A stretch of DNA of 60,992 bases, taken from a virus. Lineage: Duplodnaviria; Caudoviricetes. The DNA lies in IMG/VR virus record IMGVR_UViG_3300022602_000006, positions 1-60,992 of that record. One strand, 5' to 3'. Below are positions 10,624 through 44,725 of this stretch, in pieces (the first letter of the stretch is position 1; the number at the start of each line of letters is the position of its first letter). The notes beneath the pieces were generated by a model. That model was not told the DNA's origin. It did no database searches and saw nothing but the letters and a program-made list of their open reading frames with translations. Both the position numbers and the translations under genes were made by a program.

Positions 10624-12115
10624 GAACCTTGCCAAGCTCCGTGCTGCGCTTCCGTCTATGCCAGACGCCCAGAAGCGTAAAACTGCCGATTTATTGGTCA
10701 AATACTACAAAGAAACGACCAAAACGAAGGCAAAAGACGACTTTTTGAGCTTCATTAAGCACGTTTATCCGGGCTATATGGTGGGGCCACACCATCGGAA
10801 ATTAGCCAGAATTTTTGAAGAAATTGCCTCTGGGGCTAAAAAACGGGTCATCGTTAACATCGCACCGCGTCATGGCAAGAGCGAGATGATCTCCTACCTT
10901 GCCCCGGCGTGGTTCCTTGGCAAGTATCCTCAGAAGAAAGTGATCATGGCCTCGCATACTGCTGATCTTGCAGTAAATTTCGGCCGACGTGTCCGTAACC
11001 TTGTAGGGAGCGACCTATACCATGACATCTTTCCGCAGGTCGAGCTACAAGCAGATAGCAAGAGCGCCTCTCGGTGGGGTACCAACTTTAACGGAGAGTA
11101 TTTTGCTATTGGTGTGGGTGGTGCTTTGGCTGGTCGTGGTGCCGATCTGTTCATTATTGATGACCCACACTCCGAGCAGGAAGCCAAACAAGGTGTACCA
11201 CACGTGTTTGAACCCGCGTGGGAATGGTTCCAGTCAGGCCCAATCCAACGACTGATGCCGGGGGGCGCGATCATCGTTGTGATGACGCGCTGGTCAAAGC
11301 TCGACCTGACCGGTCAGATCATCGACCACATGACCCGTAACGACGACTCTGCGGAGTGGGAAGTTATTGAGTTCCCTGCCATTTTAAATGGTCAGCCCCT
11401 TTGGCCTGAGTTCTGGCCTTTGGAAGAGTTGCTCTCCAAGAAAGCCGATATGGATCCGCGATACTGGCAAGCCCAGTACATGCAGGAGCCAACGGCAGAG
11501 GAAGGCGCTCTTATAAAGAGAGAGTGGTGGAACGTCTGGGAGCAAGACGATCCGCCACACTGCGAATTCATCATCATGGCACTCGACTCCGCACAAGAAA
11601 AGAACACCCGTGCCGACTACAACGCCCTGACTACGTGGGGGGTGTTCTTCAACGAAGAGACCAAGAACCAGAACATTATCTTGCTGAACGCCATCAAGGA
11701 ACGGATGGAGTACCCGGAGCTGAAGGAGATGGTGCTGGAGCAGTACCAAGAATGGAGTCCAGATAGCTTCATCGTTGAAAAGAAATCCAGCGGCTCGGCG
11801 CTCTACCAAGAGATGCGTCGTATGGGCGTTCCGATTATGGAGTTCACACCGGGCAAGGGCCAAGACAAGATTTCGCGTGTAAACGCGGTGACGGACTTGT
11901 TTAGATCAGGTATTGTCTGGGCACCTGACAGACGGTGGGCTAGAGAAGTCATTGAAGAATGTAATGATTTCCCGGCTGGCAAGAACGACGACTTAGTTGA
12001 CTCTACGTCGCTTGCACTGCTGCGGTTCCGTCAGGGTGGGTTTATCAAACTACCAACAGACCAGCCAGAACCAGTGCAGTGGTTCAAGTCGAAAAGGCAC
12101 AGAGGGTATTACTGA
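10556..12115 (+). CDS. terL: Terminase large subunit
   Basis: APRHGKS Walker A, IIDDP Walker B, VMTRW, nuclease DDLVDS. Confidence 0.95.
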   Translation: MITSNTPLWRSRRLSTALKLTPENLAKLRAALPSMPDAQKRKTADLLVKYYKETTKTKAKDDFLSFIKHVYPGYMVGPHHRKLARIFEEIASGAKKRVIVNIAPRHGKSEMISYLAPAWFLGKYPQKKVIMASHTADLAVNFGRRVRNLVGSDLYHDIFPQVELQADSKSASRWGTNFNGEYFAIGVGGALAGRGADLFIIDDPHSEQEAKQGVPHVFEPAWEWFQSGPIQRLMPGGAIIVVMTRWSKLDLTGQIIDHMTRNDDSAEWEVIEFPAILNGQPLWPEFWPLEELLSKKADMDPRYWQAQYMQEPTAEEGALIKREWWNVWEQDDPPHCEFIIMALDSAQEKNTRADYNALTTWGVFFNEETKNQNIILLNAIKERMEYPELKEMVLEQYQEWSPDSFIVEKKSSGSALYQEMRRMGVPIMEFTPGKGQDKISRVNAVTDLFRSGIVWAPDRRWAREVIEECNDFPAGKNDDLVDSTSLALLRFRQGGFIKLPTDQPEPVQWFKSKRHRGYY

Positions 12116-13029
12116 TGGAATCAGGCATACGCACATTGATGCAATATTACCCTTGGATGGGAAGGGTGGACGTTAACAAGGATCCGGAAGCAGCGGCAAA
12201 GATACGTTCCAAGCTGATGCCTTCAGAACAAAATCTTGTAGACACTTCTCGGATGGTGAACGTAGGCGACCCTGATGTCTACTACAGTACGTTAGGGGTC
12301 AATTTTCAAAACGCCCCCGACGCTAATAAAAAATTAGTTCCACCTACATTTGAACAAAAATTAAAACTTGTGCCTAGGGATTATGCGATCTCCGAAGCCC
12401 AATACGAAAAATTTGAAAAGCCTAGTACGAACATTTTAGGCATTGGAAGCGGGGCGAGTCCGCAGACTTTTGCCCACGAAGCTAGGCACAACGCGATAAC
12501 CAACGAGTACATTAATAGAATCCACGACATCATGGGTTCTAATTCTGCTCCTCAATATCAATCGAACATAAACGCTTTCTACCACAATTATTTTGTAGCA
12601 CAAAACCCAAACAAGTACAGCAACAAAGATTCGTTTGCTGATAAGGAAAGCAGGGTTCTTGAAGACACTAAGTCTTCCATGCTTAGAGTGGTTCCGGAAT
12701 ACAAATGGGGGAATTCGGATTTTGTGGACACTCACAAACTCTATAATCAGAGTTTTGCCAAAGGCGAAGAGCCGGGTACGTGGGACAAGCTCACTACGCA
12801 TCCGATTGACTACATAACCGGTAATGAAGTTGAAACTTCCAAAGGTGTTCTGCCAAAAACGATGCTGGAAGAACGCAATAAATTTCCATTTTTGAATTTT
12901 GTCGGAAGCGATCCCGGCCCGGTTAGTTCGGGAATGCCCGGTGATATGGAACCCAAATTCGACCCAAATAGAAATTACAAACGCGGTGGTGCCGTAGAGC
13001 GCACGACCCACGATAGGAAAATGATATGA
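12115..13029 (+). CDS. Inserted HExxH-containing protein with C-terminal YKRGG tag
   Basis: FAHEARH; start refined to ATG 12115 (TGATG coupling); AT-richer than neighbours. Confidence 0.7.
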   Translation: MESGIRTLMQYYPWMGRVDVNKDPEAAAKIRSKLMPSEQNLVDTSRMVNVGDPDVYYSTLGVNFQNAPDANKKLVPPTFEQKLKLVPRDYAISEAQYEKFEKPSTNILGIGSGASPQTFAHEARHNAITNEYINRIHDIMGSNSAPQYQSNINAFYHNYFVAQNPNKYSNKDSFADKESRVLEDTKSSMLRVVPEYKWGNSDFVDTHKLYNQSFAKGEEPGTWDKLTTHPIDYITGNEVETSKGVLPKTMLEERNKFPFLNFVGSDPGPVSSGMPGDMEPKFDPNRNYKRGGAVERTTHDRKMI

Positions 13030-15776: not shown

Positions 15777-15967
15777 ACTATGACTCGTTACATGACTATC
15801 TAAAGGACAAGTTAATAGGGGAAAAAGAACGAGCCACCTTCAATCTAATTGGAGGAAAGGCAACGCAGAATGAGTATCACAGACTATGCGGAGTCATTCA
15901 GGGTCTCGACTACGCAGTAGCATTATTGGACGACCTTGCAAAACGGATGGAGAACGACGATGAGTGA
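15773..15967 (+). CDS. Small conserved head-module protein
   Basis: Y..LCGVIQGL motif; couples portal to GroES. Confidence 0.75.
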   Translation: MNYDSLHDYLKDKLIGEKERATFNLIGGKATQNEYHRLCGVIQGLDYAVALLDDLAKRMENDDE

Positions 15968-16340
15968 TATTGATGTCGAGGCAACACAAGATGTTGTGTT
16001 GAAAGCCAAACAGATCCCCGATCCGTCTGGTTACAAGATTCTCTGCATGGTGCCAAAGATCGACGCGACCTTTGGTGAGTCTGGGATCATCAAACCCGAG
16101 TCGGTGATCGAAGGCGAGCAAAGCTCAACCGTCGTACTGTTCGTGGCAAAAGTAGGCCCACAGGCTTACGCCGACAAGGATCGGTTTCCGAATGGCCCGT
16201 GGTGCAAAATTGGGGACTTCATCCTCGTCCGTGCGTACTCAGGTACCCGTTTGAAGATCCACGGTACCGAGTGGCGAATCATCAACGATGACACCGTGGA
16301 AGGGGTTGTTGAAGACCCTCGCGGCATCAATCGCGTTTAA
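15960..16340 (+). CDS. groES: Co-chaperonin GroES-like protein
   Basis: PSGYKIL, SGIIKP, VGP, GPWCKIGDFIL, IINDD. Confidence 0.88.
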   Translation: MSDIDVEATQDVVLKAKQIPDPSGYKILCMVPKIDATFGESGIIKPESVIEGEQSSTVVLFVAKVGPQAYADKDRFPNGPWCKIGDFILVRAYSGTRLKIHGTEWRIINDDTVEGVVEDPRGINRV

Positions 16341-18663: not shown

Positions 18664-19575
18664 ATGGCTATTTCAAGAGCACAGCTACTTAAGGAACTGC
18701 TCCCCGGCTTGAACGCTTTGTTCGGTCTGGAGTATGCAACCTACGGTGAGGAACATAAGGAAATTTTCGAGATCGAAAGTTCCGAGCGTTCCTTTGAAGA
18801 AGAGACGAAGCTTTCGGGCTTCAGCGCGGCCCCGGTGAAGAACGAAGGCCAAGCGATTGCGTATGACAATGCGCAGGAAGCTTGGACTGCTCGTTACAAC
18901 CACGAGACCATCGCTCTCGGCTTCTCCATCACGGAAGAAGCGGTTGAAGACAACCTGTATGACTCACTCAGCAAGCGTTATACGAAGGCGCTCGCCCGTG
19001 CGATGGCGTACACGAAGCAGGTCAAGGGCGCGTCGATCATCAACAACGGCTTCAGCACCACCTACACGGGCGGTGACGGACAGCCGCTGTATTCGACGGC
19101 TCACCCGCTCGTCTCTGGTGGTACCAACAGCAACACCTTCACGACACAGGCTGACTTGAACGAGACCTCGCTTGAAGCGGCGGTCATTCAGATCTCCCAG
19201 TGGACGGATGAACGTGGGCTGCTCATTGCCGCCAAGCCTCGGAAGCTGATCGTTCCTCCGCAGCTCATGTTCGTTGCCAAGCGTCTGCTTGACACTGAAC
19301 TGCGCGTTGGCACGACCGACAACGACATCAACGCCCTCAAGGCGATGGGGTCGATTCCGGAAGGCTACAAGATCAACCACTTCCTGACGGATCCAAATGC
19401 TTGGTTCCTCATCACGGACGTGCCTAATGGTCTGAAGATGTTTGTTCGTACCCCGCTCCAGAATTCGATGGACGGCGATTTCGACACCGGCAACGTCCGG
19501 TACAAGAGCCGCGAGCGTTATAGCTTCGGCTGGTCGGATCCGCTCGGCACCTTCGGTTCGGCGGGTTCTACCTGA
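18664..19575 (+). CDS. Major capsid protein (Mu gpT-like HK97 fold)
   Basis: MAISRAQLLKELLPGLNALFG, LIVPPQL, RERYSFGWSD. Confidence 0.92.
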   Translation: MAISRAQLLKELLPGLNALFGLEYATYGEEHKEIFEIESSERSFEEETKLSGFSAAPVKNEGQAIAYDNAQEAWTARYNHETIALGFSITEEAVEDNLYDSLSKRYTKALARAMAYTKQVKGASIINNGFSTTYTGGDGQPLYSTAHPLVSGGTNSNTFTTQADLNETSLEAAVIQISQWTDERGLLIAAKPRKLIVPPQLMFVAKRLLDTELRVGTTDNDINALKAMGSIPEGYKINHFLTDPNAWFLITDVPNGLKMFVRTPLQNSMDGDFDTGNVRYKSRERYSFGWSDPLGTFGSAGST

Positions 19576-20517: not shown

Positions 20518-21303
20518 GTGACAGCCGTCTACCAAAGTTCCGCTGCCGCACTGAACATTCAGTGCGATCAGGGGGCTTCGTTCTCGTTGTCAGCCACGTG
20601 CTACGACGATGCGGGGCTTATCAACCTGACGGGCTATTCAGCCTTGATGCAGATCAGGAACTCGCCGACGTACAACGGTGGTGTGACCCCCACCGTTGTC
20701 TATTCGTTGTCCACGGCTGATGGACAAATTACGTTGGGTGGTGCGGCAGGTACGATTCAGTTAGCGATTTCCGCCGCGAATACGGCGTCGTTGCCTGATG
20801 GTGAATACAGTTACGACTTGTTCATCATACAGGGCAGTTTCCAAGCCAAGATGTTTGGTGGCCTGTTCACCGTCAACCCGCGCGTAACAGTAGCTCCGCA
20901 GACGTTGCCTTACTCGTTCTGGGGCTATTCTGGCAGTGGGCTTGAACCATTCTCTCCACCGTACCCGTCTGGGTTTATTGAAGGTTATCAGAATGGCAAC
21001 GTGGCTTCTGCTGACCCTCCGACGTTCAATGGCGCAATAATACTTTTGATTGCCTATCAGGGTAATTCATACGCTGCGAATGGCGTTTGGCTATTGGAAT
21101 TGCTTGGTACGTTGCCTAAAAACTTTTTTACATCGCTGCAATTCGTGGATAGCAACGGTACTTTGCAAACGCTGTACTCATCTAACGCCACGTTGGATAC
21201 GGTTACGGTTTCCGGGTCTACGATCTGGTCATGGCCTAGCACGGTTGACTACCCGCCTCTTTCGATCAGCCCACAGTTTATTATTTCAGTGGTGATGACC
21301 TAA
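20518..21303 (+). CDS. Virion protein with BppU-N-like adaptor domain
   Basis: DQGASF, NLTGYSALMQIR, YSYDL. Confidence 0.55.
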   Translation: MTAVYQSSAAALNIQCDQGASFSLSATCYDDAGLINLTGYSALMQIRNSPTYNGGVTPTVVYSLSTADGQITLGGAAGTIQLAISAANTASLPDGEYSYDLFIIQGSFQAKMFGGLFTVNPRVTVAPQTLPYSFWGYSGSGLEPFSPPYPSGFIEGYQNGNVASADPPTFNGAIILLIAYQGNSYAANGVWLLELLGTLPKNFFTSLQFVDSNGTLQTLYSSNATLDTVTVSGSTIWSWPSTVDYPPLSISPQFIISVVMT

Positions 21304-22301
21304 TGAGTAATTACAACATCCAGATCCAATACCCCGGAGTCGCTGGCCCGATTGGCGGTGCGATTCCTGCTGGTACTAATGGTCAGATGCAGTTTAACGA
21401 CAGCGGTGTGCTTGGCGGCGCGTCGATGACGTATAACTCTACAAACAAAACATATAACGTACCCGCTCCGTCAACCGCATTCGGTGGGGCAGTTGAAACG
21501 ATTACACAGCCTCCATTTAGCGGCATTTATCCAATCACGGATGCGGCGCTTAGTTTGCTTCCAGATTCTGTTTCTGGGTTTTCACAACAACTTATTGCAT
21601 CCGACAATTACACATTTGGCATCTCTGTCAGCGATAGCAGTACTTGGTATTCGGGATTTTCCATTAACGATTGGAATACCAGCAACACATTTTTACTTTA
21701 CAGTGGTGATTCTTCTCAGTCACTGTATGGTTTATTTTTGGGCGATGGGGTTACCGCCATTGAGTTATTTGATGGTACGGGTATTTATACGTCTAATACT
21801 ACTGGTGGGGCAAAAGGTCAAGGCACCATCAACGCAACGGGTTATTACGTCAACGGGCTTGTTTCTTTAGATGCGGAAGCGCAATCGTCAAGTTGTTCAT
21901 TTCACATAAATGACGTTCCGAATAACGCAAATTTTTTCGGATACAACCACGGATTATTTACCAACATAGGCGCTTATCCTACGTTGTCATTCAATACGGG
22001 GTCAGACCCCACAATGACGACGACCACGATGTCGCTCACCAACGGTCTTAGCATGACTGGAGCAACGGGTGGAGATCAAGGAGTTGGCACCATCAACGCA
22101 ACGGGTTATTACGTTAACGGAGTCCCTGTTGCTACTGGTGTTTTAACAGTCGCCACGCTTCCCACAGCAGCGGCTGGCGCTAGAGCTTTTGTAAGTGATT
22201 CAACAGTCGCTGCCGCTGGTAATTTTGGAGCCATTATTGCAGGTGGCAGTACACATACTGTTCCAGTTTGGTCAGATGGTACGCATTGGTATATTGGCTA
22301 G
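21303..22301 (+). CDS. Fibre/spike protein 1
   Basis: GQMQFNDSG, duplicated GTINATGYYVNG, C-terminal TVATLP...WSDGTHWYIG. Confidence 0.7.
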   Translation: MSNYNIQIQYPGVAGPIGGAIPAGTNGQMQFNDSGVLGGASMTYNSTNKTYNVPAPSTAFGGAVETITQPPFSGIYPITDAALSLLPDSVSGFSQQLIASDNYTFGISVSDSSTWYSGFSINDWNTSNTFLLYSGDSSQSLYGLFLGDGVTAIELFDGTGIYTSNTTGGAKGQGTINATGYYVNGLVSLDAEAQSSSCSFHINDVPNNANFFGYNHGLFTNIGAYPTLSFNTGSDPTMTTTTMSLTNGLSMTGATGGDQGVGTINATGYYVNGVPVATGVLTVATLPTAAAGARAFVSDSTVAAAGNFGAIIAGGSTHTVPVWSDGTHWYIG

Positions 22302-22307: not shown

Positions 22308-22586
22308 TTGATGGCTACTTTTAGCGTTAATCTCAACGGTACTGCATTCAGCTACACCATCGCTGACGCAGACTGGACGCGCATCATGAATGCGTTTACA
22401 GCGACTGGTACGACCAAGAATCAAAAGGGCGAATCGGTCGTTCCTACCGAAGCGCAAGTTAATGCCAGCATTGCCAACCAGATGTTATCCATACTGATTC
22501 GCTTGCCGCAGCGCCATGAAGCGTTGGCCGCTATTAAAACAGCACAGGCGGCGGTTGCAGCGATCACTGCAACCCCGGTGGCGTGA
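22308..22586 (+). CDS. Small protein, possible fibre chaperone
   Basis: AGGAG RBS (ATG 22311); follows fibre gene. Confidence 0.55.
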   Translation: MMATFSVNLNGTAFSYTIADADWTRIMNAFTATGTTKNQKGESVVPTEAQVNASIANQMLSILIRLPQRHEALAAIKTAQAAVAAITATPVA

Positions 22587-22837
22587 TGGCTAAATCTCCT
22601 GCATGGCAGCGTAAGGAAGGCAAGAACCCCAACGGTGGGTTGAATGCCAAAGGTCGTGCGTCTGCCAAGAAACAAGGCATGAACCTTAAAGCCCCGGCCC
22701 CGCATCCCAAGACCAAGAAGGACGCGGCTAGGCGTAAATCTTTTTGCGCCAGAATGTCAGGGATGCCGGGGGCAATGAAAGATGAAAAGGGACGACCAAC
22801 CCGTAAGGCGTTGTCGTTAAAAGCATGGAATTGTTAA
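22583..22837 (+). CDS. Basic conserved phage protein (DUF6321-like)
   Basis: KSPAWQRKEGKNPNGGLN, RRKSFCARM, KAWNC. Confidence 0.75.
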   Translation: MMAKSPAWQRKEGKNPNGGLNAKGRASAKKQGMNLKAPAPHPKTKKDAARRKSFCARMSGMPGAMKDEKGRPTRKALSLKAWNC

Positions 22838-22838: not shown

Positions 22839-24038
22839 ATGCCAAGCGTAAGTAAAAAGCAACACAACCTGATGGCGATGGTGGCTCATAACCCCAAAGC
22901 CGCCAAACGGGTTGGAATTCCCCAGAAAGTGGGGAAGCATTTTACTGATGCTGACAAAGGCAGGAAGTTTGGTGAAGGCGGTATTGCAGACAAGTTGAAG
23001 GGTTATTGGGAAGATGTCAAGCAACAAGCACGCGATGCTATTGAGGCAACCAAGAATGACCCATCCCTTCTTCTTGGTACAGGAATGGCTAAACAAACTG
23101 CTGATGCACTAGTTAGCAGCAACGCTAGAAATGAACATAAACGAGGTGGTAGCGTGAAGCGTAAATTTGCAGATGGTGGGATTAACATTCCCAACGCTGG
23201 TTTATATGGAGGTCGTCCCATGATGCCTCCGATGGCTGGCAATAGTCCCATGCCGCCCGGTATGCAGGGGCAAATGGCTGGTATGCCTCCGATGGCGCGT
23301 CCTTCGTTTGGCCCCAATCCTATGGTCAATAATCCTATGCAACGTCCAATGGTTGGCATGAACCCTATGGGTGCAATGCCCGTTGCTCGTCAAACTTATA
23401 AAAAAGGCGGTCACGTGAAACCGAATGAACTTAAAGGCAAAGCTAAGGAAACGAAGTCGATTGCCAAAGAAGAAATGAAAGCCCTGAAGCGCGGTCATGC
23501 GCCAAAGGAAATTTTGGATCATGAACGTGCGGAGCATAAAGCTATGGGTTACAAAAAAGGTGGGCCAATGAAACATACCAAGCATATGGCGAGGGGTGGC
23601 ATGGGTGCCGCTCGTAAGCCTCGTATCAATCCCGCTGCTCTGGCAGCAATGATGGGGCCACCTCCCAGTGCTGGTGCTGGCCCGATGGCGGCTGGCCCCG
23701 GTGGCCCTCCCGGTATGCCGGGGGCGATGGCGCATGGTGGTACGATCCATCATCACCACGCCAAGACTTCTCATCACCACCATCACCACCACTATGCTCA
23801 CGGTGGCGCTGTCAAGCATCACGACATGTCCGAGTCGCATGGTGAGCGTATCAGCAAGAAGCCCGAAGTCGAAAAGATGATCGGCGGCAAGAAGCGAGCT
23901 AACCCGGATGGTGCCGAGAAGAAAGGCCACACCAAGGGTAAGGTCGTCAAGATGGCTCGTGGCGGTCATGTTGGTAGTCATCACGCTCGCGGCGGCGGTA
24001 TTGAGTCTAAGGGCAAGTCCAAGTACAAGGTTTGCTAA
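22839..24038 (+). CDS. Low-complexity multi-xxGG protein (Met/Pro-rich and His-rich segments)
   Basis: About 10 [FYMH]xxGG motifs. Confidence 0.8.
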   Translation: MPSVSKKQHNLMAMVAHNPKAAKRVGIPQKVGKHFTDADKGRKFGEGGIADKLKGYWEDVKQQARDAIEATKNDPSLLLGTGMAKQTADALVSSNARNEHKRGGSVKRKFADGGINIPNAGLYGGRPMMPPMAGNSPMPPGMQGQMAGMPPMARPSFGPNPMVNNPMQRPMVGMNPMGAMPVARQTYKKGGHVKPNELKGKAKETKSIAKEEMKALKRGHAPKEILDHERAEHKAMGYKKGGPMKHTKHMARGGMGAARKPRINPAALAAMMGPPPSAGAGPMAAGPGGPPGMPGAMAHGGTIHHHHAKTSHHHHHHHYAHGGAVKHHDMSESHGERISKKPEVEKMIGGKKRANPDGAEKKGHTKGKVVKMARGGHVGSHHARGGGIESKGKSKYKVC

Positions 24039-24929
24039 ATGACTAAGAAGCACACCAAAATTAAACGGATGCCGAAATCCAACAAACGGATGAAGCGTCA
24101 TTTTGATGATGGCGGCGGGGTAGACATGTCTACCCTGTCAATGCCGCAAAACATTACGCCAGACTACGACTCGATGTCGTTCGGTAAGGCGTATCAGCTT
24201 GCGAAACAGCTTGGTGACAAGACTTTCTCCTACAAAGGCCAGCAGTACGCTGCTGACCCGACGTTGGAAGCTAGAAATAAAGCCGCCCTTGCTGCTCGCG
24301 CTGCTCCTCCGGAAGTTACCACGATGGGCAGTCGTCCAGATGTCGCTTCAACTAGCGCCCGTGGTGCTGGTGGTCAGTATCTTGACCCTGATATGGCGGC
24401 GTATGCCAGCTCACGTCCATCCGTGGCACAGGCCAAAGCGGCTGCGCTTGAGAATGAAAAGCAGTTTGGTCGCTTGCTAGCAGCCGGTGCGGCTGGCGGC
24501 GCTGGGCTAGGGCTTGGTGCAGCTGCACTAGGCGCTCCAGCTATCGAAGCTATGGGCTTCGGCGGTTCCGAAGGCGCAACGGACGTTGCTGGTGCGGGTC
24601 GCATTGCCAACCTTGACCGTGGCGCTGGGATGATGGACAAGTGGCGCAAAGGTCGTGACTTCGCCGAGCGCATGTGGAAGAACCGACAAGGTGCACAGGC
24701 TGCTGGAAGCGCAGAAACTGCGCCTTCCCCGAATCAGGCGGCGATAGACAGCTTTATCAAACAAATGCAAGCTAAACAAAGATTATCAACAGGTTCGGTC
24801 TACAAAAAAGGTGGCAAGATCAAACCTAAGAAGCCAATGGTTAAGATGGCTCGTGGCGGTCACGTTAGTTCCGCATCTAGTAGAGCAGATGGAATAGCCA
24901 GTCGTGGCAAAACTCGTTGTAAATATTGA
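24039..24929 (+). CDS. Basic/Ala-Gly-rich xxGG protein
   Basis: FDDGG, YKKGG, MARGG, RADGIASRGKT. Confidence 0.8.
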   Translation: MTKKHTKIKRMPKSNKRMKRHFDDGGGVDMSTLSMPQNITPDYDSMSFGKAYQLAKQLGDKTFSYKGQQYAADPTLEARNKAALAARAAPPEVTTMGSRPDVASTSARGAGGQYLDPDMAAYASSRPSVAQAKAAALENEKQFGRLLAAGAAGGAGLGLGAAALGAPAIEAMGFGGSEGATDVAGAGRIANLDRGAGMMDKWRKGRDFAERMWKNRQGAQAAGSAETAPSPNQAAIDSFIKQMQAKQRLSTGSVYKKGGKIKPKKPMVKMARGGHVSSASSRADGIASRGKTRCKY

Positions 24930-24943
24930 TAAGGAGATTTGAG

Positions 24944-25117
24944 ATGAAGCATCATATGAAGCATGGTGGTCACGTGGGTGGGCATCCGAAGCATCACGCC
25001 CCGAAGCATCACCCGGAACACATGACCCCGCATACCCACCATCACAAGGATGGCGGTCACGTCCATACGCACATGCCGCACCACGAGCATGTCCGTAAGC
25101 ACATGCACGGTAAGTAA
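24944..25117 (+). CDS. 57-aa His-rich peptide
   Basis: AAGGAG RBS; 22 of 57 residues His. Confidence 0.7.
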   Translation: MKHHMKHGGHVGGHPKHHAPKHHPEHMTPHTHHHKDGGHVHTHMPHHEHVRKHMHGK

Positions 25118-25120
25118 GTC

Positions 25121-25399
25121 ATGATGCCTTCACGTGGGATGGGGATCATCAGTCCGTCTAAACAGCCAAGGCTGATTAAGCGGAGAGATGCCAACGTCCC
25201 CGTGAAGGTATATGCCGGTGGCGGTAAGGTTAAGCCTTTCTGGGATAAGGAAAAGCCTAAAGGTCGCAAGACCAAACACTTGAGCGATAAGCAGATGAAT
25301 ACCGCTAAAGCTAGGGCAAAGGCTGCTGGTCGGCCCTACCCGAATTTAGTGGATAACGCTGCTGTTGCTCGCAAATGTGGGGGCGGTAAAATCCGATGA
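25121..25399 (+). CDS. Small basic xxGG protein
   Basis: SRGMGII, YAGGGKV, GRPYPNLVDN. Confidence 0.75.
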   Translation: MMPSRGMGIISPSKQPRLIKRRDANVPVKVYAGGGKVKPFWDKEKPKGRKTKHLSDKQMNTAKARAKAAGRPYPNLVDNAAVARKCGGGKIR

Positions 25400-26133
25400 G
25401 CTATCCAGTACCACTGACGACGACCAACACTTCGACGTTCAACCTCGATTTCAACACTATTGCTGAAGAAGCGTTTGAACGATGTGGTGCAGAGATGCGA
25501 ACGGGTTACGATCTTCGTACCGCCCGCCGTTCTCTTAGTCTTCTAGTACTTGAATGGGCCAACCAAGGTATCAACCTGTGGACGGTTGACCAAGGTGAAA
25601 TAGTTCTTCAGACAGGGGTAATTACCTACGACCTGCCTGTGGATACCGTGGATCTGTTGGATCAGGTGATCCGTACTGGTTCGGGTAACACCCAACAGGA
25701 CATCAACATTACCCGTATCTCGGTAAGCACCTACGCGATGATCCCGAACAAGAACGCCCAAGGGCGTCCTATTCAGGTCTGGATCAATCGACAGTCGGGT
25801 GCTACTAACGCCGATGGTACGGTTCAATACCCACAGATCAACGTGTGGCCTTCGCCCGATCCCAGTACGCAGTACACGTTTGTGTATTGGCGTCTACGTC
25901 GTATGTACGATGTAGGAACTGGCGTCAATGGCGAAGACATCCCGTTTAGATTCTTACCCGCGATGGTTGCGGGTTTGGCGTATATGTTGTCTGTCAAGAT
26001 CCCCGGCGCTGAGCAACGCACTGCGATGCTCAAACAGCAGTATCAGGAAACTTGGCAGCTTGCGGCTGACGAGGATAGGGAAAAGGCAGCGATTCGGTTC
26101 GTACCACGTGAGACCTTCATAGGTTACAGGTGA
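25396..26133 (+). CDS. Head-tail adaptor / tail tubular protein A-like
   Basis: EEAFERCG, ARRSL, GRPIQ, VWPSPD. Confidence 0.75.
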   Translation: MSYPVPLTTTNTSTFNLDFNTIAEEAFERCGAEMRTGYDLRTARRSLSLLVLEWANQGINLWTVDQGEIVLQTGVITYDLPVDTVDLLDQVIRTGSGNTQQDINITRISVSTYAMIPNKNAQGRPIQVWINRQSGATNADGTVQYPQINVWPSPDPSTQYTFVYWRLRRMYDVGTGVNGEDIPFRFLPAMVAGLAYMLSVKIPGAEQRTAMLKQQYQETWQLAADEDREKAAIRFVPRETFIGYR

Positions 26134-26136
26134 TCC

Positions 26137-26649
26137 GTGCCTAGTCGGTTTGCTTCTGGCAAAAATGCGATTGCGGAGTGTGACCGATGTGGGTTTCGGT
26201 ACAAGCTAACCGATCTGAAAAACTTGGTCATCAAGACCAAGAACGTCACGATCAAGGTTTGCCCCGAATGCTGGGAACCGGATCAGCCGCAGTTGCAGCT
26301 TGGGCTTTATCCAGTCAACGATCCGCAAGCTGTGCGCGAACCGCGACCGGACGTGAGCTACTACACGCCTACCGGTGCGGTTGGTGGCGACGGCGGCAGT
26401 CGAGTGATTCAGTGGGGCTGGAATCCAGTGGGGTACAACACCTCCCTGTTCAGCAGCACGATGAACGGATCAGGGCCAACAAACAGCGCCGTGAATCCGG
26501 GTGGCGGGGTTCAGAACGATCTGGTAGCCCGTGGGGCTATTGGCACGGTGACGGCGACAGGGCCGGTGAATACGGAAGTTAGTGTGACGTATCTGACGAC
26601 TACAGGTTACTTGGGTGAAATAGCGGCGGTTACGCCGGGAGAAGTATGA
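26137..26649 (+). CDS. Conserved zinc-ribbon virion-module protein
   Basis: CDRCGF, CPECWE, DPQAVREPRPD. Confidence 0.75.
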   Translation: MPSRFASGKNAIAECDRCGFRYKLTDLKNLVIKTKNVTIKVCPECWEPDQPQLQLGLYPVNDPQAVREPRPDVSYYTPTGAVGGDGGSRVIQWGWNPVGYNTSLFSSTMNGSGPTNSAVNPGGGVQNDLVARGAIGTVTATGPVNTEVSVTYLTTTGYLGEIAAVTPGEV

Positions 26650-26795
26650 TGCACGACAGCAAGCAGGGTAAGAATCCCTATCAGGGACACAGTGACTCCA
26701 CGAAGAAGGGTGGCCCTACTTCGATGGATCGTAAGAAGTTCGGGCGCAACATGTCCCGAGCGTTGAACCAGCGCGGGAGCGCGAGGGGACGGTAA
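26646..26795 (+). CDS. 49-aa basic peptide with KKGG and GRNMSRALNQ
   Basis: Manually translated; overlaps both neighbours (ATGA, TAATG). Confidence 0.65.
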   Translation: MMHDSKQGKNPYQGHSDSTKKGGPTSMDRKKFGRNMSRALNQRGSARGR

Positions 26796-27049
26796 TGACT
26801 AACAAGTGGCAGGATTACAAGTTCCCTGAGTGGGGCAAGCAGAAGATGGGCGATTACGCTCAGCCTGTAGCCAACACGTGGAAGCCGGGGCGTCAGAAGG
26901 ATACTGGGTATCCGGATGAAGGCATTGACATGAACGACATCATGGTCAAAGGTCGCTACCCGACTGGCACCAAAAAGAAGAAGCTCATGGACATCCGTGG
27001 GTATGGTGCTGCTACCAAGGGTCGCAAGTTCCACCCGGATGAAGACTGA
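26795..27049 (+). CDS. Small basic protein
   Basis: RGYGAATKG motif. Confidence 0.7.
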   Translation: MTNKWQDYKFPEWGKQKMGDYAQPVANTWKPGRQKDTGYPDEGIDMNDIMVKGRYPTGTKKKKLMDIRGYGAATKGRKFHPDED

Positions 27050-27693
27050 TGAACTTCTCGCAGCTATCACAGGCGATTCAGGATTACTGCGAAACGACTG
27101 AACCGTCGTTCATCCAGAACATCCCGAATTTTATCCAGCAAGCTGAAGAGCGGATCTACAACTCCGTCCAGCTTCCTGCGATCCGCAAGAACGTCACCGG
27201 CACCATCAGCGCCGGTAACTCGTACTTGTCGTTGCCTAGTGATTATTTGGCTGCGTTCTCCGTCGCCGTGTTTACCTACGGTAGCCCCAGCAGTAACTAT
27301 TTGTACTTGCTGGATAAGGACGTGAACTTCATCCGTGAGTCGTTCCCGGCCTCTGGGTATCAGGCTCAACCCCAGTACTACGCGCAATTCCAGCCATATG
27401 TTTACTTACTGGGGCCGACGCCTGATGTAAACTACGGGGTAGAGCTTCACTACTATTATTACCCGGAGTCGATTGTGACCGCTGGGTCGTCATGGGTTGG
27501 GGATAACTTTGAAACTGTTCTTCTGTACGGGTCGCTTCGTGAAGCGTATCTCTACTTGAAGGGTGAACAGGATCTGGCCCAGCAATACGACCAGAAGTAT
27601 CAAGAGTCACTGGGTCTGCTCAAGATCCTCGGGGATGGTAAAGATCGTCGTGATGCTTATCGTAGTGGTCAAACAAGGATACCGGTACCATGA
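27049..27693 (+). CDS. Phage adaptor protein (second)
   Basis: FIQQAEERI, PQYYA, GPTPD, LLYGSL. Confidence 0.75.
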   Translation: MNFSQLSQAIQDYCETTEPSFIQNIPNFIQQAEERIYNSVQLPAIRKNVTGTISAGNSYLSLPSDYLAAFSVAVFTYGSPSSNYLYLLDKDVNFIRESFPASGYQAQPQYYAQFQPYVYLLGPTPDVNYGVELHYYYYPESIVTAGSSWVGDNFETVLLYGSLREAYLYLKGEQDLAQQYDQKYQESLGLLKILGDGKDRRDAYRSGQTRIPVP

Positions 27694-39343: not shown

Positions 39344-41743
39344 GTGGTGGGTACTGATATGAATAAGTATGCCTTTGGTGGAGTAACCCCCGGTTTACCC
39401 CGCCCCCTTGCCCATCATCCGCATACGATGGCTAGTGGCCTTGCGTCTCTTGGGCGGCACGGCGACTCCATGCTGGTGCACATGTCCCCAGAAGAAGTTG
39501 GTGGGTTACAGTCGCTGGCTCAAGCCCACGGCAAGTCATTGACCACTAACCCTAATACTGGTCTACCCGAAGCGTTCTCGCTCGGCACGTTTGCCAAGGG
39601 TCTCTTGCCAACGATTGGCGGTGCGCTCCTTGATGCGTATGTCCCCGGCGCTGATGCCCTGATGCCTGAGATCGCCATTGGCGCAGGGTTGGTTGATAAG
39701 CTGTCGGGTGCAAGCACCGCTGATGCCATCAACCTAGGCATGGGTGTTTATGGTGGTTCTCAAGTAACTAGTGGCATGAACAAAATGGGGCAAGCGCCGT
39801 TGGCTACAGCCTACGCCACAGATGCCGCTAATGTCCCTGTGTCGGGGCCAGCCCTAGAGACAATGGGACAAAGCATGGCGGCGGCTAATGCTCTTACGCC
39901 AACTGAATTCATGCCTAATTCAACATCATTGGATTCGCTTAACTCTGCTGCTGGGGGTGAAGCATCTCAGGAAGAACTTCAAAAGGCTGCGGATGCTTCT
40001 AACACAGCCCCGCAGTACGCCCGAAATACTAGTGGTACTTTCCTTACAAGTCCTACTCGCACTGATGTTATTGGGCAGGGGATGCAACAGTTTGCTGATA
40101 ACCCGTCACAAGCTTCAAAAGATTTTTACAACACCCTTGGCGACACCAATTATCAAAGAATGGCAAAAGCCTACATGATGGCTATGCCCGTGTTGAACGC
40201 TTATACGAAAGCCGCAACACCATCTACTCCTTCGTCATCTCTTGGCGCTTCCACAGGCTATCAGTTTTACGTACCTGCTCCCGGCTACAAGACGCTGTGG
40301 AACCAAGGCACGGTCAATCCTTTGATTGCCAAACTTGGCTATCTCCCAGCGGGTCAGCCAGCGTTCATTGGGGCAGGATGGAACCCCGGCGCATGGTCTT
40401 CAACTCCCGGTGCTAACACCGGCACGGTTCCTTCGGGTACGGGCATGAAGGCTGGCGGCCTTGCGAGTCTTAAGCACTACGCTGCTGGCGGTGCATCGAC
40501 GGCGGCGGGGGCTATACCAACTTCTGTTGGTGAAGCAATTCTTGCAACCAACGCGCCCTTGCCAACAACCCAGATGGGTACTGATCAAGCTACGCTTCAA
40601 GCTGCTAACGCTCAATATCAAAATGGGCTTTTGAATGCGTTGGCTCAGAACCCCAACATGAATTTACCTCCGCCGCCCCCCAACGCTGAAAATAGCTACC
40701 TCAGTAACCTTGCTACGGAAGTTTTACCGCAGCCTTATACAAACCCCTACGCTGGTATGACTGGTGGAAGTGGTAGCAGTGGTGGTGGAAAAAACATTGG
40801 GGAAACCGCTGGAAGTGAAGCAACGGGCGGTAGCGGGAGTTTAGCTGGGGCTGGTAGTGGCGTAGGTATTGATAGTGCGGGTATTGGTAACGGCACTATT
40901 GATACATCAGGGACACAAGATATTTCATCCAACGTACCACTGGGTGATACAGTCCCTGCGACCCCGCCGGGTTCAACACCAAGTTCAAAGCCAAGTTCAA
41001 ACAACTCTGGTTTGAAAGGATTGGCTACTAATGCTTTTAACGAAGTGCAAGGGTTTAGAAGCGCCCATCCTTTCTGGTCTTCGTTGATTGGTGGCATGGC
41101 TCTTGGCCCTCTAGGGGCATTAGGTAATATGGTATTACCGAAAGGGCAGGTGACTGTTGAAGGCGATACTGTCCAAGGTACTAATCAAACTTCAAGCGAT
41201 ACATCCGGAAATGCTCCCGACACAAGTGCATCCAGCCAAAACATAGCGAATCAAGCAAACTCAGATAGCCCGTTTTCCACTACTCCCTATAATCCAGTAG
41301 GGGCTTCGGGTGTAGATCTTGGTATCGGTGAAGGAAGCGGTGGTTTTGGTAGTGATATCGGCGGTTTTGGTAGTGATTTTGGTGATAGCGGAAAAGCGGG
41401 TGAAAACCCAAGAGCGCATGGCGGTTATATCCACGCTATGGCGGCAGGTGGTTTAGGTTCGTTCCCAGATACTTATGCTGCTGGTGGTAAGTTGTTGCGA
41501 GGAGATGGCGATGGAATGTCCGACTCGATTCCGGCAGTCATTGGCGGCAACAGACCGCAACGCGCCGCGCTTGCTGATGGCGAGTTTGTTATACCGGCAG
41601 ATGTTGTATCGCATCTCGGAAATGGCTCAACAGAAGCGGGATCCAAAAAACTCTACGCGATGATGGACAAAGTGCGCATGGCTCGCACGGGTAATCCAAA
41701 GCAGGGCAAGCAAATTAATCCTGACAAGTACTTGCCGGTATAA
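39344..41743 (+). CDS. Internal virion/ejection protein with xxGG tags and C-terminal SDSIPA-DGEFV domain (likely start 39359)
   Basis: GRHGDSMLVHM, NPNTGLPEAF, GDGMSDSIPA, LADGEFVIPADVV. Confidence 0.75.
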   Translation: MVGTDMNKYAFGGVTPGLPRPLAHHPHTMASGLASLGRHGDSMLVHMSPEEVGGLQSLAQAHGKSLTTNPNTGLPEAFSLGTFAKGLLPTIGGALLDAYVPGADALMPEIAIGAGLVDKLSGASTADAINLGMGVYGGSQVTSGMNKMGQAPLATAYATDAANVPVSGPALETMGQSMAAANALTPTEFMPNSTSLDSLNSAAGGEASQEELQKAADASNTAPQYARNTSGTFLTSPTRTDVIGQGMQQFADNPSQASKDFYNTLGDTNYQRMAKAYMMAMPVLNAYTKAATPSTPSSSLGASTGYQFYVPAPGYKTLWNQGTVNPLIAKLGYLPAGQPAFIGAGWNPGAWSSTPGANTGTVPSGTGMKAGGLASLKHYAAGGASTAAGAIPTSVGEAILATNAPLPTTQMGTDQATLQAANAQYQNGLLNALAQNPNMNLPPPPPNAENSYLSNLATEVLPQPYTNPYAGMTGGSGSSGGGKNIGETAGSEATGGSGSLAGAGSGVGIDSAGIGNGTIDTSGTQDISSNVPLGDTVPATPPGSTPSSKPSSNNSGLKGLATNAFNEVQGFRSAHPFWSSLIGGMALGPLGALGNMVLPKGQVTVEGDTVQGTNQTSSDTSGNAPDTSASSQNIANQANSDSPFSTTPYNPVGASGVDLGIGEGSGGFGSDIGGFGSDFGDSGKAGENPRAHGGYIHAMAAGGLGSFPDTYAAGGKLLRGDGDGMSDSIPAVIGGNRPQRAALADGEFVIPADVVSHLGNGSTEAGSKKLYAMMDKVRMARTGNPKQGKQINPDKYLPV

Positions 41744-41752
41744 GGAATAACT

Positions 41753-42730: not shown

Positions 42731-42733
42731 TTT

Positions 42734-44725
42734 ATGTACGACCTTCTTAAATCAGTCAAGCCTCCCCAGACAGCCATGAAGATGAATGCTGTCGAGCAAA
42801 AAGCTCGTCAGTTAAAAGCTCAGAACATGCCCGATGATCAGATTCGTGCAGCGTTGGGACAAGAAGTTTTGGATACAAATGGGATGGTTAGCCCAGCCAT
42901 GTTGTATTCGATGTTGTCTGACATACAGAAAACTAATCCAGCATTGCCGCAGCCACCTACAACGAGCATCGCAGGGCAAGCTCAAAAATTAAATTTAGAT
43001 CGTATGCAGCAGTTGCTGTCGCAAGCCAACCCACCTCCTCAAGTCCCGCAAGCACCGCAGACGGGTCAGCCTCCACAGATGGGGCAACCCCAGATGGGTC
43101 AGCCGCCAGTGATTGGCCCCGGCGCACCACAACCGATGTCTATGCCAACTGCTCATGCTCGTAGCGGTGGCCTCGCTGATATTGCAGTGCACAACATTGG
43201 CAAAAATTATGCTGGCGGTGGCATTGTTGCGTTTGATGAAGGTGGCGATATTCAGTCGGCACTGATGACTGCGAATTACGCTGATGTGTTATCACGAAGC
43301 AGCGAGCAGTCGCCAAACGCAGGTGGCAGACCTGTGCAAGCGCCTCAAATGGTTCCGTCTGATATAGATTTTTCTGCCGCACATGGTGGGCCGGTTAAGA
43401 AGTATTCTGGGCCGTATGGTTCAGATGTGTCTAACGATGCCCCTTATGTACCGTTTGAGCAATCTGTGTTGGGCAACACTCTTAGTTCAGTAGGTAACTT
43501 CTTTGGGAATACTGTACCTAATGCTTTTAACCAAGGGATGCAAGGAGCAGGGGCAGGTTTCTATAATCAAAATGCGTTACAGCAAAATGCCGCAGCAAGG
43601 CTTATTGGTGGGCGAACACAAAATCTAATGCCTCTCCCCGGTGTTGGTTCTGGCCCTTACTTGCCCTCTGCTCCAATACGTACTCCCGGTGAAGCAATGT
43701 CAACTTTGTTTGGCACCGGTAAACTGCCAGACCCAACGCAGCCGTTTGGTAGCCCAAGTCAGTTTAGTGGCCCATTCTCTCCAGCATTGATCCATCCCGC
43801 TGCGGCTATTGCATCGCTTCCGGATGACCACACTGCCACAGATCGAGTTGCAGCGGCAGACGCGAGCGGCCACCCACCATTGGGCAGTATCTGGACTGAT
43901 GAAATCAAAAAGAGACTTAATGATCTTGGCCCACGTCCTACGTTCGATTCTGTTCATGATCAGTTCATGAAAACTGAAAAAGAAATGGGGATTGGCGACG
44001 CCTTCAATAAAGTGTCTGGCATTATTGGCGACGGTCGTGCGCGAGCTGATGCCATGTATAACGCAGGTACTGCACCGGGGGGCTATGCCGATTTAGCTGG
44101 TATGAGTGCCGGACTAAATCAAGCGGGCCTTCGTGGGAATCAACCCGGTTATGTTCCCGGTCTTGCGGGTGTTGCGTTATCACTTGGCAGAAACTTTGCA
44201 GCCCAAGGTGCAGCAAAACAAGAACTTGCTGCTCAAAGAGCGGGGGCGCTTAACAACCTTGACAAGTTGCAGACAGATGCGTTGATGAACGAGGAGGCTC
44301 GCAAGTCGCAGAACCTGCGTACTGAAGCAACGCTTAGCCGTGAAGATCTTAAACAGTACACGAATGAAGTTGATAGCCTCCTGAGAACAGGCATGGGCGC
44401 GGATGAAATTAGGGAGCGTCTGATGATGGCTGGAGTTAGTAAGGCCCAAACAGACATGATCATGCAGGAAAGACTTGAAACTTCAAAACAGAGCGCTGAA
44501 GACCGTCGAAACTATCAACAAGGTGTGATTGCTTCAAAATATCAAATGCCTATAAGCCAACTTTCTAAAATTGTACAAAAACCTGAATATGCAACTGATC
44601 CAAAGTTGCAAGCACAGGCACGGGCGTTGGCGATGCAACTCACCGCTGCTGGTATTGACTTGAGCGGATTTATGCCCGGCGGGGGAGTCCCACCGGGGGT
44701 AACGGTGACTAAGGTACCGTCGTAA
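42734..44725 (+). CDS. Internal virion/ejection protein with xxGG tags
   Basis: YAGGGIVAFDEGG; position. Confidence 0.7.
   Translation: MYDLLKSVKPPQTAMKMNAVEQKARQLKAQNMPDDQIRAALGQEVLDTNGMVSPAMLYSMLSDIQKTNPALPQPPTTSIAGQAQKLNLDRMQQLLSQANPPPQVPQAPQTGQPPQMGQPQMGQPPVIGPGAPQPMSMPTAHARSGGLADIAVHNIGKNYAGGGIVAFDEGGDIQSALMTANYADVLSRSSEQSPNAGGRPVQAPQMVPSDIDFSAAHGGPVKKYSGPYGSDVSNDAPYVPFEQSVLGNTLSSVGNFFGNTVPNAFNQGMQGAGAGFYNQNALQQNAAARLIGGRTQNLMPLPGVGSGPYLPSAPIRTPGEAMSTLFGTGKLPDPTQPFGSPSQFSGPFSPALIHPAAAIASLPDDHTATDRVAAADASGHPPLGSIWTDEIKKRLNDLGPRPTFDSVHDQFMKTEKEMGIGDAFNKVSGIIGDGRARADAMYNAGTAPGGYADLAGMSAGLNQAGLRGNQPGYVPGLAGVALSLGRNFAAQGAAKQELAAQRAGALNNLDKLQTDALMNEEARKSQNLRTEATLSREDLKQYTNEVDSLLRTGMGADEIRERLMMAGVSKAQTDMIMQERLETSKQSAEDRRNYQQGVIASKYQMPISQLSKIVQKPEYATDPKLQAQARALAMQLTAAGIDLSGFMPGGGVPPGVTVTKVPS

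Follow-up and report, generated by a model that had tools for sequence, protein, structure and literature searches.

A short linear motif, consisting of a bulky residue (Y, F or M, more rarely H or R), A or K, any residue, two glycines, any residue and V or I, is in excess in only six proteins of the window (the whole 60,992-bp stretch analysed, a complete podovirus genome) and most likely marks flexible joints where ejected proteins are cut or held. Counts of [FYMH]-x-x-G-G were compared with 1000 within-protein shuffles over 70 ORFs, namely four adjacent small basic proteins, two ejection proteins, 39 other late and 25 early ORFs. Among the 35 matches, 17 fall in the small proteins (22839-24038, 24039-24929, 24926-25117 and 25121-25399; 2.29 expected, 0/1000 shuffles reaching 17), where the tighter form [FYM]xxGGx[VILM] gives 10 against 0.24 expected, and nine in the ejection proteins (39344-41743 and 42734-44725; 2.60 expected, 1/1000 shuffles). 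There is no excess in the other late ORFs (8 copies, 9.96 expected, 771/1000 shuffles) or in the early ORFs (1 copy, 2.16 expected). The first-pass annotation had placed about 28 copies in eight late proteins and had expected a frequency above that of shuffles and early proteins. Every listed copy was found in its place and the frequency claim holds, but by the shuffle counts per protein group six of the eight proteins are supported, the lone copies in 12079-13029 and 26646-26795 being at chance level, and four copies (TKKGG, RAHGG, ARSGG and AAHGG) fall outside the [FYMH] pattern. The features concerned are listed below.

12079..13029, + strand: 316-aa variable protein between terminase and portal, tag YKRGGAV at residue 300 near the C-terminus (P=0.15 alone)
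15936..16340, + strand: GroES-like protein (PF00166, E=4.4e-5) whose mobile loop ATFGESGIIKPES resembles the tag
22583..22837, + strand: 84-aa basic protein, DUF6321 (Pfam PF19846, E=1.2e-24), opening the variable small-protein block
22839..24038, + strand: 399-aa basic segmented protein, 10 tags (1.39 expected), ending in tag plus GGGIESKGKSKYKVC
23949..23968, + strand: 20-nt stretch identical to 24843-24862, encoding KMARGGH in two paralogous C-terminal modules
24039..24929, + strand: 296-aa basic protein, 4 tags (0.51 expected), with the conserved C-terminal module (YKKGG..MARGGHVSSASSRADGIASRGKTRCKY)
24926..25117, + strand: 63-aa protein, 35% His, 2 tags (MKHGGHV, HKDGGHV), from its sequence and an orthologue in locus L064
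25121..25399, + strand: 92-aa basic protein, one tag (YAGGGKV), phrog_34011
25396..26133, + strand: 245-aa second SU10-adaptor-like protein within the block, without tag (ESM Atlas score 0.99)
26137..26649, + strand: 170-aa conserved protein with two CxxC pairs, zinc-ribbon-like, without tag (sequence, orthologues)
26646..26795, + strand: 49-aa basic protein, decayed tag TKKGGPTS and closing motif NQRGSARGR (orthologue comparison)
26795..27049, + strand: 84-aa protein ending in RGYGAATKGRKF (sequence, relatives)
27049..27693, + strand: head-tail adaptor, SU10 type (PF24175, E=2.2e-28; PDB 7z47, E=1.4e-6)
39344..41743, + strand: 799-aa acidic ejection protein, 5 tags (1.76 expected; orthologues), the last two leading into the tape-measure-type element
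41474..41743, + strand: tape-measure-type element YAAGGKLLRGDGDGMSDSIPA..LADGEFVIPADVVSHLGNGS plus helix (profile against PDB, tblastn)
42734..44725, + strand: 663-aa ejection protein, 4 tags (0.80 expected), with the tandem tag NYAGGGIVAFDEGGDI at residues 159-173 (about nt 43208-43252)

The four small proteins (pI 10.2-11.4, 16-26% K+R) lie in a block opened by 22583-22837 (pI 11.2), which exceeds the PF19846 cut-off for DUF6321 (87.2 bits vs 28.5) and whose module also terminates larger PHROG families. The proposal that tags delimit segments of differing composition was borne out in 22839-24038: the first tag comes exactly after an N-terminal module (residues 1-43, phrog_16759) that stands alone in phage BUCT555 and phiKZ-like phages, and the further segments are Ala/Asp/Lys (44-99), Pro16/Met14 (110-186), Lys/Glu (187-237), Ala/Gly/Pro (250-296) and His12 (297-318). 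This position at module borders favours the reading of the tag as a joint. The homologues found for 24039-24929 are all unnamed, and the closest Atlas clusters of 25121-25399 are all viral and unnamed. The untagged 25396-26133 has 64 orthologues at >=80% coverage, and 28/30 of its ESM Atlas matches carry PF24175. In orthologues of 26646-26795 (KKMRAGGKTN, HGMKAGGPTS, SSYKAGGPTS), [YFM][KR]AGG[KP]T[NS] is conserved, and TKKGG is a decayed copy of it. A second motif (R/N-x-x-G-x-x-x-K/R-G), said to close several small basic proteins, is real and widely conserved; the end RGYGAATKGRKF of 26795-27049 is related to it, and relatives carry RGTGAATKGxKF. The 20-bp identity between 23949 and 24843 is exact and the match extends to 27/30 nt, but its interpretation as a tag copied between genes gives way to paralogy of the shared C-terminal module, which fits better. 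Other tag copies use synonymous codons, and selection therefore acts on the peptide.

The tag was predicted to be common to related uncultured phages, and it does occur in IMG/VR relatives, with the consensus KK[YFM][AK]xGGx[VI]K, where small basic genes form a variable block amid the head-tail adaptor genes; the 27049-27693 adaptor, with 597 relatives in IMG/VR, served as the anchor for the comparative loci. M, Y or F occupies position -3 of 54% of the 509 GG pairs in 392 basic ORFs from 80 related loci, with K at -5/-4 and V at +2, and K is enriched at -5, -4, -2, -1 and +3; no such pattern surrounds the 1731 GG pairs in 836 other ORFs. Block size varies from 15 to 4203 nt and tag number from 0 to 12 across 17 loci. 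Among 173 tagged basic ORFs, with 1-9 tags each, 74 terminate in a common C-terminal module of ~30 residues (tag + SSASKRADG[CI]AxKGKT[RK]GKFV), conserved at the ends of many block genes. A profile of this module matches 9,541 protein clusters, all without a name (E<=0.001, some false positives included). Coordinates place the module at the extreme C-terminus in almost all of the 150 best of these matches, and in the 4 genuine matches among 6 sequences inspected the carriers are small proteins that end with it. Its G[CI]AxKGKT, invariant or nearly so in the alignment, matches the Walker A string GxxxxGK[ST]; a P-loop NTPase was rejected, as small disordered proteins carry the string within their final ~15 residues and the AF2 monomer is of low confidence (pLDDT 60).

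In the ejection proteins (pI 5.0 and 6.2) the tag has acidic or neutral surroundings (e.g. FDEGGDI) and holds conserved positions in orthologues; the tandem tag of 42734-44725 is kept, and the downstream ORFs of the relatives' loci carry at least 2 tags in 13/13. The suggestion that one tag links otherwise unrelated particle and ejection proteins has comparative support, its position being kept in the ejection orthologues and its occurrence being pervasive in the variable locus and extending to tape measure proteins of unrelated phages. The profile of the element in 39344-41743 identified the tape measure proteins (TMPs) gp16 of phage Douge (8zdo_S, E=2e-22, two stretches) and of JBD30 (gp46; 8rk3_A, E=1.8e-5), which are modelled in these structures over the last 33-42 residues only. 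In tblastn, 50 of the 60 listed rows fall under tape measure genes, and among the relatives the element is present in 44 distinct sequences from 80 loci. By sequence comparison, residues 711-760 of 39344-41743 (tag + "G.G.G.SDSIPA..GEFV") are homologous to the siphovirus element [FY]AxGGx[VL].G.G.G.SDSIPA.LS.GEFV, found also in lambda gpH and in TMPs of Mycobacterium, Gordonia and Nitrincola phages. Its siphovirus carriers are tail rulers, whereas here it belongs to a podovirus ejection protein: the genome has SU10-type adaptors and ejection proteins, and PHROGs/Pfam searches of it returned no tail tube or tail chaperone families, on which ground a ruler function of 39344-41743 was rejected.

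Cleavage at the tag is suggested purely by analogy with long-tailed phages. According to Linares et al. 2023 (PMC10038345), T5 pb2 is cut after R1127 into pb2* and pb2C; this cut, the only one known to be mapped in a tape measure protein, falls in the tag-like ..FVPR|AEGGMMYPG, one residue before A-x-G-G. The cleavage signal originally proposed is in part supported: the T5 cut lies within a tag-like sequence but precedes A-x-G-G instead of following Gly-Gly. In lambda, a ~14-kDa piece is cut from the Gly-rich region of gpH to yield gpH* and gpHC, at a site stated in 2025 to be still open (PMC12617516). That region contains FATGG at 733 and YATGG at 778, and a predicted cut F733|A734 would give 79.8 + 12.5 kDa. 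Both phages keep the C-terminal piece anchored and eject the remainder; in the short-tailed phage studied here the tag is multi-copy and present also in small basic proteins, and a cut is only proposed.

We infer that the tagged proteins would be carried in the particle and sent out via the portal-tail channel, with the tag in their unstructured joints. The carriers would be the two large ejection proteins, one with a true tape-measure-type element, and the fast-changing, very basic, disordered small proteins encoded amid head-tail adaptor genes. The tag would act as a processing or release joint, the chain being cut by some agent just before A-x-G-G, as in T5 pb2, so that a conserved C-terminal anchor (tag + ..RADG[CI]AxKGKT[RK]..) would be separated from variable basic segments, which would then travel with the DNA. 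That the tag is such a junction of packaged and ejected proteins, cut at the tag, is the preferred but tentative reading, with less than even chances. Several observations speak against a cut. In T5 pb2 the bulky position is taken by R, not Y/F/M, and the SDSIPA part is missing. Some tags sit where a cut makes little sense, e.g. at residue 9 of the 799-aa protein and at relatives' ends (..VKMAYGGKC). Searches of 67 ORFs with Pfam (E<=0.01) and of 16 ORFs with NCBIfam gave no maturation protease, whether of the prohead, the adenain-like or another type; the peptidase-like matches were confined to an early DUF2201_N/VWA protein and an M15 endolysin. A binding strand would account equally well for the lysines that flank the tag and for the conserved V/I at +2.

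Almost as likely, if itself somewhat doubtful, is that the tag, chiefly in the C-terminal module, remains uncut and binds a putative shared site in the portal-adaptor channel or within the procapsid, by which unrelated cargo would be loaded and later ejected, in the manner of a capsid-targeting or cargo-loading peptide. The module is shared by 2-5 neighbouring paralogues whose N-terminal parts are unrelated, tags occur at extreme protein ends, many tags per chain would suit multivalent binding to a repeated lattice, and tagged genes are interleaved with two adaptor genes. Neither the module nor the element has a confident fold alone (AF2 monomers, pLDDT 60 and 55), as expected if they fold on a partner. 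However, the tag occurs also in TMPs of phages whose capsid and tail proteins differ widely, and a phage-specific receptor is therefore hard to picture. Alternatively, the tag could be a mimic of the GroES mobile loop recognised by the apical domain of GroEL, which would hold long or disordered ejection proteins for assembly, with any cutting to follow. The loop of E. coli GroES (KSAGGIVLT) is flexible and has A-G-G followed by hydrophobic residues; ejection-protein tags read GGIVA or GGIIA and T5 reads AEGGMM, and in a comparison of 11 GroES-like proteins the phage's own loop (TFGESGIIKP) and those of 7 relatives (E[YF][DEG][GE][GS]G[IL][IV]K) have an aromatic residue as in the tag. Yet most GroES-like loops have their aromatic at -2 and tags theirs at -3, the tags lie outside the Cpn10 fold, those of the small proteins are polar or basic at +1 and +3, the hydrophobic triplet is missing from most tags, and no GroEL is encoded by the phage. 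A groE dependence reported for T5 (cited in PMC5649160) may be an indirect effect. This explanation is improbable.

The basicity of the small proteins and the lysines around GG would agree with a DNA-contacting unit of protamine-like internal proteins, formed by basic flanks, a Gly-Gly turn and a wedge residue. The same tag occurs in the acidic to neutral ejection proteins and in TMPs, so the basic flanks belong to the carrier and not to the tag, and such a role is very unlikely. Adenain and ASFV pS273R recognise sites of the type (M/I/L)-x-G-G|x, which MARGG and MAHGG resemble. The first-pass comparison with these viruses nevertheless fails where tested: no clan CE cysteine protease came up when 67 ORFs were compared with Pfam, the register is one residue out, the bulky residue standing at -3 and not at -2 from GG, and the one cut mapped in a related sequence (T5) precedes A-x-G-G. 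A cut after Gly-Gly by a virus-encoded cysteine protease is accordingly hardly credible.

Returning to a tag that is cut or held, the closest counterparts among internal proteins are those of T4, which are small and basic, come from a hypervariable locus, share one short conserved peptide, and are packaged and injected. The locus described here is likewise hypervariable, with small basic products sharing one peptide. The T4 capsid targeting sequence is N-terminal and removed by the prohead protease gp21, whereas the tags are internal, C-terminal and repeated, and the Pfam and NCBIfam scans gave no prohead protease. T7 gp6.7 and gp7.3, small virion proteins annotated as injected, have GG motifs (EFGG, AFGGKK, ARAGGKK, SGGGINI), but [FYM]xxGGx[VI] is absent from them and from gp14/15/16. 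A still broader reading, in which one cut-and-release (or chaperonin-held) joint is common to all proteins pushed through tailed-phage channels, is unlikely; it would span the TMPs of long-tailed and the ejection proteins of short-tailed phages together with >9,000 unnamed clusters of small basic proteins, would place the lambda gpH cut at F733|A734, and would turn the small proteins into polyproteins from which peptide cargo, injected with the DNA, is derived.

The selection, storage and release of phage-injected proteins are known for few model phages. A single short tag, common to lambda gpH, T5 pb2 (in tag-like form), mycobacteriophage TMPs, podovirus ejection proteins and thousands of unnamed small basic proteins, would allow injected proteins of uncultured phages to be predicted from sequence only. 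It points to a large unannotated protein family (the 9,541 clusters, false positives included), and the predicted bond in lambda gpH offers a concrete and cheap test. As to the remaining ORFs, the 16350-17300 product is an acidic, scaffold-like coiled coil. A search for relatives of 12079-13029 found none; proteins at the same position carry 3 tags in DSL-LC04 and 2 in HTVC027P.

The peptide tag [FYMH]-x-x-G-G, in its fuller form a bulky residue followed by A/K-x-G-G-x-V/I, is best described as a junction motif, of tape-measure pedigree, in phage proteins that traverse the channel. The podovirus that carries it is represented by a complete record of 60,992 bp, which has direct terminal repeats and in which no tRNA genes were detected. 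Its early genes lie at both ends of the window on the - strand, with a family A DNA polymerase, an SNF2 helicase, a DUF927 protein and a PD-(D/E)XK nuclease among their products, and its late genes, including those for fibre-like proteins, occupy about 8.7 to 50.4 kb on the + strand.

Features of the window
3105-5580, - strand, early pair: AAA ATPase (375 aa) adjoining a DUF2201_N/VWA protein (445 aa)
10556-12115, + strand, large terminase
13026-15776, + strand, portal
15936-16340, + strand, GroES-like protein
16350-17300, + strand, scaffold-like protein, acidic, coiled-coil
18664-19575, + strand, major capsid protein
22839-24038, 24039-24929, 24926-25117 and 25121-25399, + strand, tagged small basic proteins (399, 296, 63 and 92 aa)
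27049-27693, + strand, SU10-type adaptor
35711-36130, + strand, M15 endolysin
39344-50383, + strand, run of large ejection proteins, the last one with an SLT domain; 39344-41743 (799 aa) and 42734-44725 (663 aa) are tagged

Judged by the portal (38-43% identity), its closest cultured kin are HTVC027P/HTVC023P of Pelagibacter, Pag-Yong1 of Planktothrix, DSL-LC04, and CRP-901/902 of Roseobacter; the Caulobacter phages RW/GB2A are further off (32.5%). The portal ends in a Gln-rich, coiled-coil-like C-terminal extension of ~230 residues (15100-15776) with an acidic tail, and the fibre-like proteins 21303-22301 and 28479-31391 have a C-terminal module in common (..GGRAF[VI].DS...P[VL]W[ST]DGT.WYIG). 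PDB sequence searches with the 399-aa, 296-aa, portal and capsid proteins returned His-tags only.

All tag copies listed in the first-pass annotation were found in place, and the observation is confirmed and stronger than could be known at that stage. Comparison with 1000 within-protein shuffles revealed 17 [FYMH]xxGG matches in the four adjacent small proteins (22839-25399) against 2.29 expected (0/1000 shuffles), 10 against 0.24 for the tighter [FYM]xxGGx[VILM], and 9 against 2.60 in the two ejection proteins (1/1000), with no excess in the remaining 39 late ORFs (8 tags, 9.96 expected) or in the 25 early ORFs (1 tag, 2.16 expected). The proposed comparison with shuffles and early genes thus places the excess in six late proteins and in no early ORF. 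The system had been thought to comprise eight proteins; shuffle statistics uphold these six, and 12079-13029 and 26646-26795, with one copy each, do not exceed chance when taken alone. The copy in 26646-26795 is nevertheless rescued, because its orthologues carry [YFM][KR]AGG[KP]T[NS] at that position. The variable ORF 12079-13029, between terminase and portal, has a HExxH string (HEARH) and its tag near the C-terminus; relatives were found neither with IMG/VR patterns nor in 5 related genomes.

A 20-nt identity had been taken as a trace of the tag being copied between genes. The identity is exact, but it belongs to a 27/30 match between paralogous C-terminal modules of neighbouring genes; the remaining copies encode the same residues by different codons, and therefore the peptide is the conserved entity. 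Tags do border segments of distinct composition in the 399-aa protein, as had been noted. Its first tag directly follows a 43-residue module (phrog_16759), which stands alone as a 52-58-aa protein in phiKZ-like phages and in Stenotrophomonas phage BUCT555, in the latter immediately behind the portal gene.

Related uncultured phages share the tag, as had been anticipated. At least 597 adaptor relatives were identified in IMG/VR and 80 retained; lysine-flanked tags occur on small + strand ORFs upstream of the adaptor in 18 of the 19 loci examined, the exception (L012) having just two atypical matches in that interval. The 80 loci contain 392 basic ORFs (K+R >16%) with 509 GG pairs, position -3 being M, Y or F in 54% of them, with further preferences at -5/-4 (K), -2 (K or A) and +2 (V); this pattern is absent from the 1731 GG pairs of the 836 other ORFs. 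The tagged basic ORFs (173 distinct) have 1 to 9 tags each, 98 of them one. In 17 loci the block bounded by the DUF6321 gene and the second adaptor-like gene ranges from 15 to 4203 nt in length and from 0 to 12 in tag number, which makes it a hypervariable locus. Literature searches on DUF6321/DUF3008 returned nothing relevant.

Several other features accompany the block. In its middle lie a second SU10-adaptor-like paralogue (25396-26133) and a conserved two-CxxC, zinc-ribbon-like protein (26137-26649). The 63-aa protein 24926-25117 is 35% histidine, residues 297-318 of the 399-aa protein (23727-23792) include a 12-His run, and both are kept in relatives (locus L064, protein P0048); Ni/Zn binding within the particle is conceivable for these stretches. 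In relatives a Cys falls within the last four residues in 38/173 tagged basic ORFs versus 48/1071 others (e.g. ..KVC, ..CKY, ..GGKC; ..AWNC in DUF6321).

One terminal module, [KR][YFM][AK]xGGSV.SSAS[KR]RADG[CI]Ax[KR]GKT[RK]G[KR][FM][VI], or its variant YA[KR]GGGIE.RGKTKGR.V, is shared by 74 of the 173 tagged basic ORFs, with as many as four or five paralogues side by side that have the same end and differing N-terminal parts (e.g. locus L049). The profile of this module identified 9,541 matches at E≤0.001 (1,475 at E≤1e-10) among 1.84 billion representative proteins; nearly all of the best 150 of the 9,541 are 44-433 aa long and carry the module, by coordinates, at the extreme C-terminus. Six matches were read, of which four are genuine and two (P0035 and P0058) are false positives with bacterial Ig-like repeats. 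A word-indexed homologue search with 24039-24929 gave 23 matches, none with a name or Pfam domain. For the 92-aa protein the neighbours in the Atlas are viral throughout and all unnamed, and neither the 296-aa protein nor a tagged relative of 101 aa had a tblastn match in cultured phages. The AF2 monomer of the module shows no confident fold (pLDDT 60.3). Its last ~15 residues (24885-24926) include G[CI]Ax[KR]GKT, a string that resembles Walker A without belonging to an NTPase fold and is conceivably a phosphate- or DNA-end-binding loop.

The link to tape measure proteins comes from the ejection proteins. In orthologues of 39344-41743 a pair of tags precedes, in 11 of the 14 loci listed, the strongly conserved stretch [YF][AS][AD]GG[KR]LL.GPGDG[MV]SDSIPA..(4-8)..LADGEFV[IV]PA..VS.LGNGS, and among the 80 loci the tape-measure-type element itself (41474-41743) is represented by 44 distinct sequences. 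Orthologues of 42734-44725 have a recurrent tandem, Y[AD]xGGI[VI]AF[AD]xGG, and the downstream ORF, where the DNA of the locus includes it, has at least two tags (13/13). At a loose threshold, tblastn of the 64-residue stretch with the element against cultured phages matched 94 records, and among the matches listed 50 of 60 rows fall under annotated tape measure genes, from phages of Mycobacterium, Gordonia, Rhodococcus, Nitrincola and Morganella; the match to the element is unmistakable in the aligned residues, such as FATGGYVSGAGTGTSDSIPAWLSNGEFVINA of Nitrincola phage 1M3-16. The element profile also identified the tape measure of Pseudomonas phage JBD30 at E=1.8e-5 (8rk3_A) and, with two copies of the element, that of mycobacteriophage Douge at E=2e-22 (8zdo_S). 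The available parts of the structure papers describe as modelled only the last 33 (JBD30) and 42 (Douge) residues, and by these the element is without a solved structure; its AF2 monomer shows no confident fold (pLDDT 55.2). Over whole proteins, tags are in excess in the Nitrincola tape measure (3 against 0.51 expected), not significant in three others, and absent from the T7 internal proteins.

What the tag does may be indicated by tape measures that are cut. According to the available part of Linares et al. 2023, T5 pb2 is cleaved behind R1127. Around that residue T5 reads ..NSFVPR/AEGGMMYPGVSYQMGEHGTEVV (slash at the cut), and therefore the cut separates the bulky position (R in T5) from A-x-G-G within a tag-like sequence. 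Phage lambda gpH (L195, residues 730-785) has two copies, FATGG at 733 with ..GEFVF.. behind it and YATGGYV at 778. The part of PMC12617516 at hand describes a ~14-kDa C-terminal piece cut from its glycine-rich region, with exact site and means of catalysis given as unknown; we predict that the cut would lie between F733 and A734, for which the computed pieces are 79.8 and 12.5 kDa. On this comparison we tentatively suggest that the tag is cut as in T5. The analogy with adenovirus and ASFV proteases, which cut after di-glycine, finds no support, since no clan-CE protease was found in the 67 ORFs and the T5 cut, as far as the source describes it, does not follow Gly-Gly; cleavage after Gly-Gly by an adenain-like enzyme is accordingly very improbable. 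Of the analogy with T4 capsid targeting, the locus architecture holds, but signal position and protease requirement do not, and no prohead protease was found here, nor a C39-type family. The 67 ORFs gave two peptidase-like matches, the M15 endolysin and, among the early genes, the DUF2201_N/VWA protein. The latter, a putative metallopeptidase, is the sole non-lytic peptidase-like gene of the genome, and Pag-Yong1 carries the same pair with the AAA ATPase.

The tag could instead be a docking handle that stays uncut, which we rate as only a little less likely than cutting. Complex prediction of the terminal module with the major capsid protein, the scaffold-like protein or the apical domain of E. 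coli GroEL (191-376) scored 0.00 in runs without controls and does not bear on binding either way. That the tag mimics the mobile loop of GroES, as a handle for chaperonin, is unlikely. Both this phage and its relatives have a gene for a GroES-like protein among the head genes, the loop being ATFGESGIIKPES (containing TFGESGII) in the window, E[YF][DE]GG[IL][IV]KA[DE] in six relatives, KYGESGLIKADE at locus L014 and the classical EKT[KA]GG[IL][IV] in HTVC027P, Pag-Yong1 and DSL-LC04; the E. coli loop is KSAGGIVLT. The GGIVA tags of the ejection proteins and AEGGMM of T5 resemble such loops, but the small-protein tags have no hydrophobic triplet and the aromatic residue is displaced by one place in most loops. 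A DNA-contact repeat is less probable still, and some other reading takes up the rest. Searches of the literature with motif strings, supplements being outside their scope, gave no relevant result, and we found no published description of the motif.

The near-identity of the first tag (FGEGGIA) to the GroES-like loop (FGESGII) was set aside because orthologues of that tag differ at +1/+2. The loop of 15936-16340 has gained an aromatic residue, as have those of six relatives. Terminase residues 491-499 (12026-12052), FRQGGF[IL][KR]L, were considered as a copy of the tag that binds the portal, which is possible, but the match does not exceed chance (P=0.19) and is further weakened by conservation inside a conserved enzyme. 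This terminase tail is in the register of the tag (aromatic at -3, hydrophobic at +1/+2) and is kept in the window and four complete relatives, with FRQGGLI in HTVC027P.
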